From Chiloscyllium plagiosum (Eukaryota), in assembly GCF_004010195.1 (NCBI RefSeq), contig NC_057719.1, forward strand, positions 47,679,808-47,743,807: a stretch of DNA of 64,000 nt, written 5' to 3'. Position numbers and translations under genes: made by a program. Positions 23,501-37,780 of this stretch are shown here, piece after piece (within the stretch, counting starts at the first letter, position 1; each line of letters starts with the position of its first letter). Under the pieces are notes generated by a model. The model was not told the DNA's origin. It saw nothing but the letters and a program-made list of their open reading frames with translations, and did not search any database.

Positions 23501-26500
23501 AAAACTACTCCCTCTAGCAGAAGGGATTAAAAATCAGAAGACATCGATTTAGGGTTATTGGCAAAAAAAAAATCAATGCCAAAAGCTTTTATATGGAGTG
23601 AGCAGTTAGTATCTGGTATATACCACCTCAGAGGGCGATGAAGGCAAAATCAAGCAAGATCTTGCTGATGATATAACTGATGATAAGTTAGTCTTGCAGA
23701 GACTGATATGGACATGACTGGCTGAATGGCCTCCTTCTGTGCTTCAACCATTTGATGATTCTATTTAATATTCCTCCTATCTTAAACATCAAAAATAAGA
23801 TTTGAAATGACAATGGATGTGTGTGCATAAAAGTGTATCAGGTATACTTTTGGTGCTGACAATTACTGCGGAATCTAAGAAGAACATAATCGATTATGTT
23901 CTAAGAATGGTCTAGCTAGCTGAATAGCTTTTATTTCATTAAAAGGAATTGTAGTTGGAAAGTAATATCAGAGATTTCTAAAATAAAATTTACCAACATT
24001 TCTTCAAACAGAATAAATTACATATCACGTCGACAACTTCCTTACTTTCACACAAGTTAAATAATCTCAAATGACAAAATAATGAAAATACATAAGCAAA
24101 AATAGCTAACAAATATAAATTCAAATACAATAATAGTATTTACATGTTCAAAGATACTAAATTGGTGGGCAACATGGTGGCACAGTGGTTAGCTCTGCTG
24201 CCTCACAGCGCCAGAGACCCGGGTTCAATTCCCGCCTCAGGCGACTGACTGTGTGGAGTTTGCACATTCTCCCCGTGTCTGCGTGGGTTTCCTCCGGGTG
24301 CTCCGGTTTCCTCCCACAGTCCAAAGATGTGCAGGTCAGGTGAATTGGCCATGCTAAATTGCCCGTAGTGTTAGGTAAGGGGTAAATGTAGGGGTATGGG
24401 TGGATTGCGCTTCGGCGGGACGGTGTGGACTTGTTGGATCGAAAGGCCTGTTTCTACACTGTAAGTAATCTAATCTAATCTAAAAAAATTATTCCTTATT
24501 CCTTACCGTTTGAGTTATCATCTTCAATAGCTCGATTATGTCGAGAACGGTTGACAATCGCCATTACATTATCATCATCACCATCATCGTCATCATCATC
24601 ATCCACTAATGGCTGCCTCATAGGTGATGGGGGTGATAGATTCATGCCTTTTGTTAACAAGTCATTGTCCTCTTCATCAAACAAATCTTCAAATGTGGCA
24701 GCATTTGAATGAGTTGCGTGTTCCTAAATAAAAATGTTTAAAAAATTTGCAGTAACCATGTCCAACAGAACTAATTGAGGTATCTACAAGTTTCTAATTT
24801 GTATAATTTCTCTATGGTGAATAGAATTAATACACTTCAGTACTGTAAACTGCGGAACAGATACACCTATGACGAGGATTTAATGCACTCATGCAAGCGT
24901 GTATACATACACACACAGACACAGTTAATAAAATTGTTTTAATACAAAACTACCAGTTCAAATAAAGTAAGACCTTATAATTATATTACTTTGCTTTAGC
25001 TTATTGCACACTCTACCAGAAATGATGAAGTGACAGCAACAAAATTACAAAAACATCCTTGTGCCTGTATTACTACTATAGACATAAAGTGTTTACCTTG
25101 CTACCAGCACTTGCCAAAACCCCTTCATGAAGACCCAGATTTCCTTCAGCATCTGTATATGCTATACTTTCTTTTGAAGGATGCCATGCCATTGCACAGA
25201 TGCGATAAGACTTCTCATGCTGAAATCTAAAAAACAACATAGTATTACTCACATCATACATTTATCAACCATTTATTAGATTATACTGCAGATAAACTAC
25301 CACTGAAATGGCAAGGGATCAACAGAAAAGTGAGGGCTTAAAAACTCGCATCTTAGACTTCTTTGATATAACACATTATAATTTTAGACCGTTAGTATCT
25401 TAAATACTTGAGCATATAGATCAGTTCTCAAGTGTTGAGCAATTAAACTAGTAAAGATTTTCAGTGCCTTGCCGCTTTTCAATTAATTAATTCAGTTTTA
25501 TGAGCCAAGTGTTAGTATTTTGTTCCAATAAATTGTAAGTTTACATTTTCAATTCCATCACGACAAGTTTCTTTATCTTCAAGTGCATTATTTAGGGTGA
25601 AATGGAAAATTAAAAGTGAAACTGTTTTCAAAGGAGTTAGAGAGAAGCAGAACACCCCTTTTACTTATTCATTGGTCACTACATGACAAAAAGAGAAGTT
25701 CACAGAAAGATATCAAGTTTGCCTACTCTCGCAAAATGACTGGTCCACAGGTTGGACGAAAAGCTAGTTCTGGATATCCAAAGTATGAATTCAAGTTCTT
25801 ATTATTCAATCTCAACGCTTTAAAGACATTTATCTTCCAGGTTTTAGCTACTACTATTAAGTTCAGTCAGCATGTTCAAGACAGCAAACAGCCAATTGTA
25901 TTTTTATTGCATGAGGAGAAAGTGAGGTCTGCAGATGCTGGAGATCAAAGTTGAAACTTTATTGCTGGAACAGCACAGCAGGTCAGGCAGCATCCAGGGA
26001 ACAGGAGATTCGACGTTTCGGGCACAGGCCCTTCTTCAGGAATGAGCAGAGAGTGTTCAGCAGGAGAAGATAAAAGGTAGGGAGGAGGGACTTGGAGGAG
26101 GGGAGTTGGAAATGTCTTCTTCTTGACCTCTCCGCCTCCACCCTACTCCGACCTATCACCCTCACCTTGACCTCTTTCCACCTATCACATTTCCAACGCC
26201 CCTCCTCCAAGTCCCTCCTCCCTACCTTTTATCTTCTCCTGCTGAACACTCTCTGCTCATTCCTGAAGAAGGGCCTGTGCCCGAAACGTCGAATCTCCTG
26301 TTCCCTGGATGCTGCCTGACCTGCTGTGCTGTTCCAGCAATAAAGTTTCAACTTTGATATCCAAATGAATCCAACAAGAACTGGACCAAGCATATGTGGT
26401 ACTCATAATCTTCTTCATCCTAAGTATACGCATGATTTTACTACAACTGCTAAGTATTTCATCAGTAATATTTTCAGCAACATAACACAAAACATCGCAG

Positions 26501-29500
26501 ATAAGAAAAACTGCAGCATATTAACATGCCAAATTTCCCCTAAAGTAAATGCATTAAAATTCCATCAAATTTGACAATATTGTTATGTATTTGGCTTTAA
26601 GGGGTTAACACGTAGGGGGTTCCATACAACAGCCAAGCAGGGTGAGATCAATAGTTGTGATGTTGAGAAGATATGCTCTTCTTCATTAGGGTAAATAAAA
26701 CCACAGAAAGTAGACAAAATCAAACACAAAATATTGCTGAGGAAAGGAGTGAACAAAGACAGAAATGGGAACTATTTAAATGTAAATCTATGATTCGCTC
26801 CAGTAATAATATCTAACAATATTCAATATCTAGGATCATACCAAAAGAGTACTTTGAAGTATTAAAGGGATTTTCTGCTATCTAGTGATCTCTGAGGCAT
26901 GAAGTTTCCCTTTCTTGATATGTGCAAGATCAAGACAAACACTAGGCATACAGTAACAGTGATATCACCGCAGGGAGTTGGCAGCCAATTACACTGAAGT
27001 ATTCTCAAACAGCAAATCAGAAAGTAAAATGCAGTAAAATCTTCTACTCAATTAAAATTTCCACAGAGTAAATACAAATCATCAGTGATACACATGGGAT
27101 TAAAGTAGCTGAAATATCATAACTTTTTTTTAAATTTGAAAAAAACATTATTGCCATAATAATGGCAAAAAAGCATCCCAGTGATATAACATTAGATTTC
27201 TATGAGTAACTATTGAGTTATTAAAATTAAATTGCATTTATATAGTAACTGTTATGGCCACAGAAAGATCCAAAATGCTTTACAGCCAATAAAGTACTTT
27301 GGAAGTACAGTCAGTGTTGACACATAGCAGGCAATTTACATGTAGCAAGCTCCCACAAAAAGAAATGCTGTACTAATTATTGAAAAAATATTGACTATGA
27401 CACCTGGAACAACTTTCTCATCAGTGGTGAGGTTCTGGAACCCACGAGTTCAAAGGGTAATACAGGCAAAAACCATAATCACATTAAAACATGCGGTGGA
27501 ACAGTCAATGGGTTTAGGAATCAAAATTTGGAGAGTGGGATTAGTGTGACGAGGTATTCATCGACTGGTATGGACATAATGTGCCAGACGACTACCTTCT
27601 GTGCATGAAATCTTACTGTGTTTTCTATGTATCTATAACTCTTATTAAAAATAGTGCCATTGGCTCTTCTATGTCTACATTAGAGGACAGACAGGCCTTC
27701 ACTTAGTAGGCTCTCGTCAAAAAGATAGCAGCTTAAATCTTCCAACTTCCCTCACTGGATTGGAATGTGTTGCTGGAAAAGCGCAGCAGGTCAGGCAGCA
27801 TCCAGGGAACAGGAGAATCGACGTTTCGGGCATAAACCCTTCTTCAGGAATGAGGAAAGTTTGTCCAGCAGGCTAAGATAAAAGGTAGGGAGGAGGGACT
27901 TGGGGGAGGGGCGTCGGAAATGTGATAGGTGGAAAGAGGTCAAGGTGAGGGTGATAGGCCAGACTGGGGTGGGGGCGGAGAGGTCGGGAAGAAGATTGCA
28001 GGTTAGGAAGGCGGTGCTGAGTTCGATGGATTTGACTGAGACAAGGTGGGAGGAGGGGAAATGAAATTTTCAGCTCTGATCTCCAGCATCTGCAGACCTC
28101 ACTTTCTCCTAGCCATAGTGAAGCCACACAGTGTCTAACTCAATGACTCGTCTCTGGTAAATACGAACGTTGTTGATCTCCTCTTGTGTTGAAATCAGAA
28201 ACAGACATGAAGGTGACAATTGGAAGCCACCCACCCTGCACTGAGACTGAAGCCAGCCGTCTCTGGTTTGATGTTTTCAAGAAAGACCTTTATATCTGCG
28301 ATGGGAAGATTTGGGTGTCAATCTTACAAGGTAATGCAACAATATCATTAAGGTAGAGATGGATTGTTTGTAGTGCCACCCCTCAGTGAAGTTGTTAATG
28401 AATAAATAGAATACATAAAGAAAGAAAGTCACATTTGTATGAACCTCAGCAAGGCTCATTACGGTCAATGAAATTTTTTTTACTCAGCCAATGAAACAGG
28501 GCACAATAAGCTCCCACAAACAGCAATATGATAGTTGCCAAGTGACCTGCTTTTGCAATGTTGATTGGTCAGGACTCCAGGGTTAACTCCCTTACTATTC
28601 TTTAAAATTGTGCTATGGTATCTTCTCCCTCCACTTGAGAGGATAGAATCATAGAATCCCTACAGTGTGGAAACAGGCCCTTCAGCTCAACAAATCCACA
28701 CCAATCTTCTGAAGATCCATTCCCCTATCCTATTATCCTATACTTACCCGTGACTAATGCACCTAACCTGAACATTATGACAATTTAGCATGACCAGTTC
28801 ACGTACCCTGCATGTCTTTGGATTGTGGGAGGAAACCTGAGCACCCAGAGGAAACCCACACAGACATGGGGAGAATGTACTGTCGCCCAACGGTAGAATC
28901 AAATGCAATACCCTGGTGCTGTGAGACAGCAGTGCTAACCACTGAGCTACCATGCCAGATAGATGCGACCTTTTTTCTTAACAATTCGCCTCTGACTGCA
29001 CACCCCTGCTCAGGACTACACTGGGGTATCAACCCAGATTAGAACTTTCTAAAGAGGCATTTTGCCCACAATATTGTAAATCAGCGTTCAGGGTTCAAGT
29101 AGTGAGTCACGCTAATTCAGAGTGCATCAGTGCTGAACGGTACTGTCTTCCATGTGCGTCAATGATCAGATAAAGGTCTCTGAGTGTTGAATAAATTATC
29201 CCCTCCCCACGCCTCCATCCTACTCTGACCTATCACCCTCACCTTGACCTCTTTCCACCTATCACATTTCCAACGCCCCTCCTCCAAGTCCCTCCTCCCT
29301 ACCTTTTATCTTCTCCTGCTGAACACTCTCTGCTCATTCCTGAAGAAGGGCCTGTGCCCGAAACGTCGAATCTCCTGTTCCCTGGATGCTGCCTGACCTG
29401 CTGTGCTGTTCCAGCAATAAAGTTTCAACTATTTTTATTGCATGACCAAGCTACAGATTGATGCAAATATGCACTGGGACTGTTCAACTGCTGATTCCTC

Positions 29501-32500
29501 CTGCATTTTTAAAAAAGCCCTGTAGAAAGCCATAGGCATACAGCCACACCTTTTGTCACTGTGCCTTATAACAATTTAACTGCGAAGAAACTATGCAAGT
29601 GCCTTTGCACCAATTATTTTTAAGGTGCCTGGGGAAACGCCACTTTTTGTCATTAGCCTACTAAGAAAATCATATAGGTGCTATTCTTGAGAACTTGATC
29701 GTACTTAAAAATAGCCCAGGAAATTCATGTCAGAATTATGCCAGAAATTATTTTAACATTTATAAAATGTCACCTCTATTTTGAGAGCAAAATATAATAA
29801 AACTATTTCCAAAAGTTCAAAGCAATTCAGCAAATGTTCATAAACTTACATTCCATCCATTTAAAAATGAAGATAAGCTAACTTCAATGAAAAGTGCAAA
29901 CAAAATAAGCATTTTAAATTCATAATCATTTTTTAGTTTAGAAATTGGACAAAATTATCTTAAAACATTTAAATTTCCAGTATTTTGACTTCTCATTACT
30001 GAATAATAGAATCTCATGAAGGAAAATAAACATTTTGACACTAACTTATCCTGTAAATAATTCAGTGTGAATTCCATCACAATATCCTCAAACAATAATG
30101 GAGTTTCACAAATTAACACGAGAATATTATACCTTTCAATGCATTTTCTGGTCTGTACGTTCCAAACCACCATTGATCCATCAATGCTCCCAGCAGCCAC
30201 ATAACCACCACAAGGAGACCATGATACAACATTTAATGGCTGAGGAAAAAGAATGGGAAAATAATCCTCAAATTTAGCATTTGTAAAAAAATACATTAAT
30301 CTTGCCTTTAATAATCACCTGTCTGTCTTTGAAAATAAACACAACTTCTAAAAACAGTTGGCAAAACTTACAGGGAAAATACACAAGGTTTCTTACCTAT
30401 TTTGGCAAAATAATTTTTAATATTTCTATGATCTTCTAAACATTAGTTCTAATCCAGAGGACTTGTTGTTTAGAAAGCTATTTGCAATGATTGCTGCTTC
30501 ATGAAATGTTATTTTAATATAAAAATGTTATTTTTATATTAAATTTCAGTAAGGTTACTCTCAATTGGAAAACTTACCATCATAATACTTTCATCTGAAA
30601 GATTGTCAGTATTTTCCCAGGTGTCCCTTTCAAAGAGCTTCACAACCTTTTCTACTGGAACTGCCAGAAGCTATATGCACATACCAAAACAAAAAGACAG
30701 AATTAAATTGAAAACATTCAAATTACACATGTATTCAGTCAATTGTTAAAATTTAATTTCCAAACATTTCTTCTCATTTTTTGGTATACATGTTGCATAC
30801 TTTTCTGGTTAGTAATGCAGAAACGAATTACAATACTAGAAACTCTGGTCAAAGCGGAGACCAAAATACACAACTAAAGCTACATTATCAACAGCATAAA
30901 ATGTACCCAAAAGATCCTATTCCACTTACTGAACCAAACAAATTTAGGATCAGGTTCGTACAAGGCCGGTCTGGAGTCCACAATGAAGTAGAATACAGAC
31001 GGAACTGGCCTATAGTTCATCAATACATGGCACTGGTAGCCTCTCCATTACATGTCCATATAGCATCACCCTTTTCTTACGGTATTTGCTCCCACAAGAA
31101 TTGCAACCCGCAAGACACTGCCATCAGTTCAGAGACTACTAAATCACCCGAAATGGCTGCTTGCTAATGAGAAAAGAAACACTGCAGACTTGATAAGTTG
31201 AGCTATCATACCCCAGAGTCTCCCATTGAGGAATTACTCAGTACTATCATCCATCACAAGGCGGGAATAGCTTGGAGGTGATGTAACTCCACTAGGCTAG
31301 GCACCACAATCCACCTCACCCAAATACAGGACAACCGTACACGTACTGCAGCTAATCCAGTAAGGCTAGGAATACTTTAGCAAATAATTCACTTCCTGAC
31401 CACCCTCCCAAAGCTTATCCACCATATTCAAGGTACAAGTTAAGAGTGTAATGGAAAACTCTTCAATCACCTGAATCTGCAGTTCCTACAACACTCAGGA
31501 AGTTCGAACACAAACTAAGCAGCTGTCTTCTTTATTGACACCTGATCTATAAGCAGAAATCAGTAACGCCCTCCATCAGTGGTGAACCATTATTGAGTGT
31601 ACACACAATGCAAGCTGCACTACAGAAACTTACCAAGGCTTCTTCAATAGCACTTTCCAAATCCATGACCTCCACTGTCTAGAAGGAGAAGTGAAGCAGG
31701 TACACGAGAACATCACCACCTGCAAGACCCCCTTCCAAGTCATGTGCCCATCTTGACTTAGAATCATATCATTCTCCATCATCACTGGGGTAAAATCTTG
31801 CAACTACCTATCTAAATAGCACTGCAAGAGTACCTATGGACTTGAGATTATTTTCCAATGCATAGTTATAGCAGGTTAATTGTGGTTAAATGAGAAATCT
31901 GGTAACTTAAGCATGTGGCATTTTGTCTGTGATTGCTTATTATCAAAGATAGCCCCTCAAAGGTGAGATTAACCAAATGGCCCACACTAACAAATTTACT
32001 GGTGGAGTAAACTCCCATTTTGTAATAACCTTTGAAGTGAAAGTCTTTAGTATACAGGCAAAGTTTTGTGTTTAAAATTGGCTTCATTTTATAACTACAT
32101 TACTTTGGAATGACGTTGTGTAATTAATTACATACAACAATTTCTTAAGACAATCTAGGCTGTAAAATTTCAGTGATAAGGTTTGATTCTTGGTAAATGA
32201 CAATCTAAACAACCAAAGGCTTTCCAAAATTTCCTTTTATTAACTTGTTCTAGGCAGCAGTTATTACATAAATAAATGGTTATTTTAACTTTAAGATATT
32301 GATGGTTTTAGAATTCACCAGAACATTTGGGTTGATATTTATGACTAGAATATGACACTACATACCTCTAAGCACACAAAAGTACTTGGATAGTATTTCC
32401 TTACTTGGCTTACTAAGTTTATGACTTCCTACTAACAGGGAAAACTTGGAAGGAAAAGGTGTACCCTGTCATTGATAATTTTGTGAACCAGTTGGGAGAC

Positions 32501-36606: not shown

Positions 36607-36998
36607 CTGAAAGTTCAGAAAGATTAACAAAATGAGAGATCCTGAAGTCTTTGTAAAGACTAATCAGTCTTGATAATGGATGCTCTCTTGCCTTTCAGCT
36701 TCATGAGCTTCAGCAAAACAGGAAGCCACTTCAGTAATGAAGGAATGTCCAATATGAGATGAAACTCAAAACAAAGATTCTTGGGTGGATGCAAGAGATT
36801 CCATAGCACTGCTGAAAAAGCATCAGCAGAACTCTCCCAGTGTCCATATAAATATTTATCACCACTAATAAGACATACTGACTGGCAATTTATCCCATTC
36901 CTTTTTTGCAGACAGATTTGTGCGGTCAATCCAAGGAGTAGATCTACACCAAATTCATTTAATTATGATTTGGACTGGGATGTACAAAATTAAAAATC

Positions 36999-37498
36999 NN
37001 NNNNNNNNNNNNNNNNNNNNNNNNNNNNNNNNNNNNNNNNNNNNNNNNNNNNNNNNNNNNNNNNNNNNNNNNNNNNNNNNNNNNNNNNNNNNNNNNNNNN
37101 NNNNNNNNNNNNNNNNNNNNNNNNNNNNNNNNNNNNNNNNNNNNNNNNNNNNNNNNNNNNNNNNNNNNNNNNNNNNNNNNNNNNNNNNNNNNNNNNNNNN
37201 NNNNNNNNNNNNNNNNNNNNNNNNNNNNNNNNNNNNNNNNNNNNNNNNNNNNNNNNNNNNNNNNNNNNNNNNNNNNNNNNNNNNNNNNNNNNNNNNNNNN
37301 NNNNNNNNNNNNNNNNNNNNNNNNNNNNNNNNNNNNNNNNNNNNNNNNNNNNNNNNNNNNNNNNNNNNNNNNNNNNNNNNNNNNNNNNNNNNNNNNNNNN
37401 NNNNNNNNNNNNNNNNNNNNNNNNNNNNNNNNNNNNNNNNNNNNNNNNNNNNNNNNNNNNNNNNNNNNNNNNNNNNNNNNNNNNNNNNNNNNNNNNNN
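36999..37498. other. Assembly gap (500 N)
   Basis: N run; round length suggests a scaffold join of unknown true size. Confidence 0.99.
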
Positions 37499-37780
37499 TT
37501 CAAAATTAGGGGGCATACTTTTAAGGTGAGGGGAGAAAGATTTAAAAAGGACATGTATAACAAAGTTTTTACATAGAGAATGGTTAGTGTGTGGAATGAA
37601 TTGCCAGAGGAAGTTACGATTGCGGGTACAGTTACGATGTTTAACAAAACATTTGGATAAGTATGTGAATAGGAAAGGACGTGGGCCAAACGCAGGCAGG
37701 TGGGTCTAATTTAGTTTGGGAACATGGTCAATGTGGACTAGTTAGACTAAAGGGTTTGTTTCCATGCTATATGACTTTGA
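37499..37780 (+). mobile_element. CR1 3' end
   Basis: RGHTFKVRGERFK motif and CR1 tail. Confidence 0.85.

Follow-up and report, generated by a model that had tools for sequence, protein, structure and literature searches.

The locus described here raises the question of how an exon of TSPEAR came to lie, antisense and with intact splice sites, inside an intron of WDHD1, and whether the DNA of the animal carries it there at all. The window, meaning the whole 64-kb stretch of DNA that was analysed, holds WDHD1 on its minus strand, as identified by the Pfam domains WD40_WDHD1_1st, Mcl1_mid, and Ctf4_C, and the exon is found on the plus strand within a WDHD1 intron running from 30132 down to 25227 (edges judged by eye). 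The antisense arrangement given in a preliminary description of this DNA, which was made from the letters alone, is confirmed.

Identity of the exon and its home gene

The exon (28199-28330, plus strand) is 132 bp long, is bordered by AG at 28197-28198 and GT at 28331-28332, is symmetric in phase (1-1), and contains 43 open codons (28201-28329), all as first described. Its translation shares 46% identity over 41 amino acids (pairwise E of 2e-15) with P0065, whose source name is [quoted passage not shown] a match to TSPEAR that, as judged by sequence comparison, is beyond chance. Searched against 1.84 billion proteins, the peptide gave 94 matches at E values up to 0.001. EPTP repeats were detected in 6 of the 10 matches scanned, two of which (P0037 and P0049) also contained LamG. 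A Pfam search with the 43-aa exon peptide itself returned no match. The exon is homologous to named TSPEAR proteins in the segment between LamG and the EPTP/EAR repeats, and these domain-bearing matches support the assignment to that segment made in the preliminary description.

An intact TSPEAR gene was located at G000:C7:22308570-22347077, where TSPEAR exons are collinear on both sides of the exon over 50 kb and EPTP matches follow downstream at C7:22.335-22.376 Mb (up to 22376389). The window exon equals the home exon, G000:C7:22329502-22329633, letter for letter. The complete gene that had been proposed as a check thus exists elsewhere, and the alternative of a misplaced contig fails, as the true TSPEAR gene still holds the exon. 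Because the letters equal those of the home exon, the open frame and splice sites, both present as described, are uninformative on selection. By tblastn, only 28199-28330 was matched in the 64-kb window, in line with the claim that neither neighbouring TSPEAR exons nor an overlapping TSPEAR gene are found there. A block of EPTP-repeat exons was also observed in two copies 25 kb apart (G000:C4:11814737-11815405 and 11839556-11840344), one of which has stop codons within the matches and may be a duplicate or an artefact.

Structure of the PLE-bounded block

The exon is enclosed in a block of 3,515 bp (25915-29429) that is bounded by pieces of a Penelope-like element (PLE) and flanked by a 16-bp target-site duplication. 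The parts of the block and its surroundings are as follows.

25097-25226, minus strand: WDHD1 exon that follows the host intron (edges by eye)
25899-25914, no strand: target-site duplication, left copy, 16 bp (direct repeat D12 with 29430-29445)
25915-26115, minus strand: young PLE 3' end, PLE sense on minus (99.5% identical to the end of L117)
26116-26363, plus strand: PLE piece in inverted orientation, pairing with 25939-26115 as a hairpin
26364-27760, plus strand: "fragment A," 1.4 kb of ordinary DNA (home at L159, G000:C10, about 63.56 Mb)
27761-28110, minus strand: older-type solo PLE insertion, mosaic by its diagnostic bases
28111-28198, plus strand: TSPEAR intron, acceptor side (by alignment to the home on G000:C7)
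28199-28330, plus strand: TSPEAR exon encoding the LamG-to-EAR linker (no difference from the home exon)
28331-29210, plus strand: TSPEAR intron, donor side, with a blunt cut at 29210
29211-29429, plus strand: inverted PLE 3' arm with a hammerhead-like motif at 29336-29371, ending tailless at the first end site
29430-29445, no strand: target-site duplication, right copy (direct repeat D12 with 25899-25914)
30133-30239, minus strand: WDHD1 exon that precedes the host intron (edges by eye)

Introns are kept on both sides of the exon, the ends of the block are PLE arms, and no poly(A) was seen, so the early judgement that this is not a processed pseudogene stands. The left PLE end contains a hammerhead-like motif at about 26043-26008, the first end site, and a 36-nt tail; private changes among the copies considered below fall within this end, and it is likely to be real locus sequence near the flank, as is the right arm at 29211-29429. 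The inverted piece at 26116-26363 is likely to be the start of a pasted path, and the hairpin centre at 26115/26116 recurs at 192 places in the assembly. The same centre is shared by a stand-alone 442-nt hairpin PLE with its own duplication, which lies about 2.6-3.0 kb to the right of the exon copy at locus L019 and is a possible home of that path segment. The window also contains N gaps at 36990-37499 and about 49280, the long one adjoining LINE-like sequence.

Both ends of the block are PLE 3' pieces and share 99% identity with the end of a copy encoding a reverse transcriptase (RT) and GIY-YIG. This copy, L117, has a 749-aa frame that scores 35.4 bits for RVT_1 (cut-off 29.6) and 21.5 bits for GIY-YIG, just under the cut-off of 22.6, which P0100 exceeds with 23.1 bits. 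A partner open reading frame with RT and C-terminal GIY-YIG is found upstream of the matching terminal repeat, as in EN+ PLEs, and further marks of these elements, namely a target-site duplication, an inverted arm, and a tail of 30-40 bp confined to one end, are found as well. The 36-nt tail occurs at exactly one end in all 54 copies that could be typed at both ends (42 left and 12 right), the other 44 of 98 copies not being typable in this way. The tailed and tailless ends are likely to be real and fit two reverse-transcription start sites, one per opposite strand. The hammerhead-like motif is putative, its core and helices I and II having been recognized by eye and by folding (z-score -0.1), and an Rfam search yielded no hammerhead, the only matches being of miRNA models to the hairpin, with scores under the gathering threshold.

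Several further observations concern the element itself. The frame of L117 (2490-4739) has a Cys-rich linker and an internally duplicated stretch of about 116 nt, and may itself be a filled consensus; the position of the linker ahead of GIY-YIG recalls Neptune, as seen by eye and without an RT tree. The 5' region of the young PLE is GC-rich with a 36-nt tandem array (L037, L043, L050, L069, L039, L040, L130, and L148), and the full length is about 3.0-3.1 kb with the array collapsed. A first look for the GIY-YIG domain of the young PLE gave 163,425 candidates. GC-rich pieces after the block were considered as junk reads and rejected, being the 5' region of the PLE, and within one class of hairpins the spacer consists of PLE ORF sequence. 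A retrozyme-like circle between the hammerheads, which are 3,077 nt apart, was rejected because the right-hand joint differs in every copy.

The foreign parts of the block have two separate homes. At L159, a PLE stub with a duplication of its own stands on either side of fragment A, the left one pointing away from it, and TSPEAR is absent; fragment A in the block differs from this home at 1 position in 1,397. The PLE stub in the TSPEAR intron on C7 is also flanked by its own duplication, and the block is 98.5% identical to this home over 27764-29210 (1,461 nt aligned, with 8 mismatches and one gap of 14 nt). Since the block differs from both homes, it must represent a second haplotype or an older state. 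The older stub in the window, which includes a short tail arm at 28064-28110 on the plus strand, is L159-like by its diagnostic bases at 27759-27836 and TSPEAR-intron-like from about 27962, the type switching within about 120 nt where both PLE pieces are alike (27837-27958). This switch indicates that the joint between the two loci falls in PLE sequence common to both. None of the 98 copies shows the duplication that a master copy should have, and 15 further loci examined for a master locus yielded the home of fragment A instead.

Copies, block lengths, and control loci

The preliminary description had called the exon an orphan, a term that does not survive a search of the assembly, as the exon peptide is encoded identically at 98 places, one of which is the real TSPEAR gene, with 6 further partial places. 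For comparison, 98 copies were assembled from the window, the 96 other full places (home excluded), and 1 of the 6 partial places. Fragment A is present in 81 of these copies, with the other 17 beginning at the older PLE stub; across the assembly, the start of fragment A is found at 298 places and its end at 100. The left end of the block is fixed and its right end variable. Target-site duplications differ from copy to copy, each copy having its own (54 of 98 typed at both ends).

The interiors of the copies show 0 differences in 223,432 bases, where a divergence of 0.1% would by simple arithmetic give some 220. The ends, in contrast, have changed, with 18 private changes in 4,677 bases of right arms, 15 in about 6,800 bases of young left arms, and 23 differences in 2,125 bases of old-type left arms. 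Because no differences occur in the interior against these changed ends, the interior holds no locus-specific data, although identity alone does not make it wrong.

What follows the foreign block is an inverted arm in 47 copies, sequence not matched to PLE in 24, N in 4, and PLE in the orientation of the left arm in 23. The TSPEAR intron on the donor side is cut elsewhere in other copies or extends to a CA tract at exon +1077, where 36 of the 98 share one stop base, which N follows directly in 27; N is absent immediately after the foreign block in 71 of 98. Two candidates for a defined RNA 5' end were rejected, that at 29210 being merely the cut of the window copy and that at +1077 fitting an assembly dead end, given the N in 27 of 36. 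Past +1257 the TSPEAR intron is single-copy.

The point at which the PLE resumes was compared with the length of the foreign block in 18 copies, which are the 23 same-orientation resumptions less 1 whose left end was not called and 4 restarting at the PLE 3' end. In 14 of the 18, the PLE coordinate at the restart and the distance already covered agree to within 500 nt (e.g. 2,459 versus 2,417 and 1,537 versus 1,254), with a median offset of about +260 determined by hand and with PLE coordinates past about 2,730 being approximate. Uniform draws reached 14 of 18 in 0 of 100,000 cases, and the Spearman coefficient is 0.83 (p = 0.002) among the 11 copies with fragment A that resume in the 5' part and 0.50 (p = 0.04) across all 18. 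The four misses (L011, L016, L023, and L048) are 1.4-2.4 kb off. We know of no retrotransposition step that makes a foreign block match the length of the PLE body it displaces, and such a match is expected from the filling of a gap of estimated size. At L043 and L128 (G000:C10, about 5.89 Mb), the PLE 5' region was observed to resume after the TSPEAR piece, 94 nt from the position expected if that piece replaces the element body.

Control loci were chosen solely by the PLE 5' region; of 32 such loci, 3 were dropped as exon copies. Among the remaining 29, 21 run into N and 8 into other sequence, and none keeps the PLE body through the 1.5 kb in view. One of the eight (L153) may be a true deletion. 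Three others (L175, L176, and L177 on G000:C16, C14, and C3, respectively) contain a second filler that is unrelated to the first, is 100% identical among them, departs from the PLE arm at one fixed point, and is cut at about 1,420, 2,400, and 3,100 nt, after which PLE resumes. This second filler recurs at 199 places in the assembly and is likely to be an artefact of the same kind. Locus L024 has the first filler from the left and the second from the right, and L072 has the first from both sides, as two-sided extension would leave.

Joint overlaps average 0.69 nt against 0.66 nt expected by chance (32 placed joints, 30 of 62 being unplaced and only 4 natural joints being available for comparison); the joints are compatible with blunt cutting and not strongly discriminating. 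Public sequencing runs contain at most 0.77 of the sampled words (20 holders from 10 studies) compared with 0.88 for the home allele, a difference that lends weak support to an artefact, as the species may differ. No RNA runs were found among the listed holders of the sampled words.

Origin of the block and comparison with known systems

The reading favoured by these data, with a probability of roughly 0.85 that is drawn from assembled sequence, is that a real young PLE lies in the WDHD1 intron and that its interior was filled with a wrong path carrying the TSPEAR exon. The exon is then probably not in the animal's DNA at the WDHD1 locus. A young PLE of about 3 kb with an inverted arm, 3,515 nt in all, would have inserted, and its interior, which is likely to be the element's own RT and GIY-YIG body, would have been left unassembled. 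A gap closer may then have extended inward from the PLE end through PLE-shared sequence into fragment A from its home at L159 and passed on, by way of another PLE piece common to both loci, to the TSPEAR intron, the walk being cut at the estimated gap length or dying at the CA tract at exon +1077 and leaving N. One such walk would have been pasted into about 300 gaps, of which the 81 fetched copies would be those long enough to hold all or most of the exon, and in 17 further copies the walk would have led straight from older-type PLE ends into the TSPEAR intron. This explanation is favoured because of the length rule (14 of 18), the controls, the two-sided fills, and the lack of copy-specific letters in the interiors, and also because of the common stop (36 of 98, 27 then N), the intact homes, the type switch, and the absence of a master copy.

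Some points speak against a fill. The copy numbers are those of the assembly, 4 of 18 copies miss the length rule, N does not follow the block in 71 of 98, and the differences from both homes call for a second haplotype or an older state. A fixed PLE 3' end with a falling copy number (298, 100, 81) fits 5'-truncated retrotransposition equally, and interiors free of private changes could be a correct consensus pasted into real copies. The length rule does not apply to the window copy, because that copy resumes in an inverted arm (one of the 47), and the verdict on it rests on its sharing the identical path.

An actual transduction by the PLE is unlikely. In the version considered, an antisense transcript reading through TSPEAR intron, exon, and intron into a PLE end would have been reverse-transcribed from internal start sites; a second round would have added fragment A, and some 300 insertions of the chimeric RNA would have followed, 5'-truncated and with an inverted second arm. 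Retention of the introns would be accounted for by antisense templates. The PLE ends on both sides, the different duplication at each site among the copies typed at both ends, the polarity of truncation, the pairing of old-type arms with copies without fragment A, and the existence of an RT and GIY-YIG partner with a 99.5% identical end are all as such a process would leave them. A precedent in a rotifer (PMC3846280) and the use of two internal start sites in vitro (PMC11167929) have been described. However, transduction gives no reason for the PLE to resume at a coordinate matching the length of the foreign block, and it does not explain a second, unrelated filler that behaves alike, private changes in ends but never in interiors, or the gaps that 21 of the 29 controls show in place of plain long PLE copies. 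Ordinary PLE insertions account equally well for the duplications and tails, and because the left stub at L159 points away from fragment A, one more template jump would have to be postulated.

We give little credence to the proposal that a vertebrate PLE built an ORF-less family of about 300 copies in two capture rounds, and no such PLE family was found for this kind of genome in a literature search. If it were true, nearly 100 sites would have received a TSPEAR exon that is phase-symmetric, ready for splicing, and accompanied by its intron edges, 54 insertions would record strands that always used different reverse-transcription start sites, and exon dispersal at this scale, unreported for PLEs in the literature searched, would make a striking vertebrate case.

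A mixed origin, in which one real fragment A-TSPEAR chimera was reused as filler and the WDHD1 copy is false unless this happens to be that locus, is very improbable. The few differences from both homes that are common to all copies are what an older real copy would give, but a second haplotype explains them equally, the switch zone of about 120 nt of alike PLE is short enough for an assembler to walk through, and no copy has the duplication expected of such a locus. A functional exon, whether in an overlapping plus-strand TSPEAR-like gene or as a selected segmental duplicate, would suit the open frame and intact AG/GT edges but is largely refuted and exceedingly improbable, as no other TSPEAR exon lies in the 64 kb, the exon is bounded by PLE ends and a duplication, and identity to the home exon leaves nothing for selection to act on.

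On the artefact reading, the locus holds no new biology beyond an ordinary young PLE insertion. The preliminary interpretation as a whole is partly supported. The assembly appears to hold hundreds of PLE gaps closed with a small number of foreign paths that are identical from gap to gap (the two counted stand at 298 and 199 places), and these fills mimic exon capture by a retroelement down to the duplications. Findings of PLE transduction in G000 accordingly need read support. The length rule and the comparison of ends with interiors require an assembly only.

With EN+ PLEs, which have pLTRs, an inverted 5'-truncated copy, and a 30-40 bp tail (PMC8557442, PMC11167929, and PMC4209133), the block shares its two ends, a 36-nt tail at one end, an RT and GIY-YIG partner, and duplications of about 12-18 bp; the putative minimal hammerhead-like motif would fit as well. 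Unlike in those elements, the interior of the block in the assembly is not the element. In Adineta vaga (PMC3846280), intron-bearing host genes are framed by direct and inverted PLE terminal repeats with a duplication. Intron-containing host DNA framed in this way by PLE repeats and a duplication is also found here, in the assembly only, and as in A. vaga no PLE body is present inside the frame. The rotifer cases are one-off events, the NRPS case having an empty allelic scaffold, whereas the present ones comprise about 300 letter-identical interiors of a length that tracks the missing PLE body, with a second filler behaving alike. Private changes were not found in the interiors as they were in the ends, and the length of the cargo is not independent of the point at which the PLE resumes.

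Mis-closed gaps are a further point of comparison. PLE insertions often trouble short-read assemblies (Craig et al. 2021, PMC8557442), and gap closers often insert untrue sequence or mis-assemble gap sites, according to the abstracts of the DENTIST (PMC8848313) and RFfiller (PMC9575681) papers. A literature search found no paper on one path pasted into hundreds of retroelement gaps so as to mimic transduction. The block resembles the mis-closed gaps described there in its probably wrong inserted sequence, and it is set apart from them by an identical path that recurs hundreds of times.
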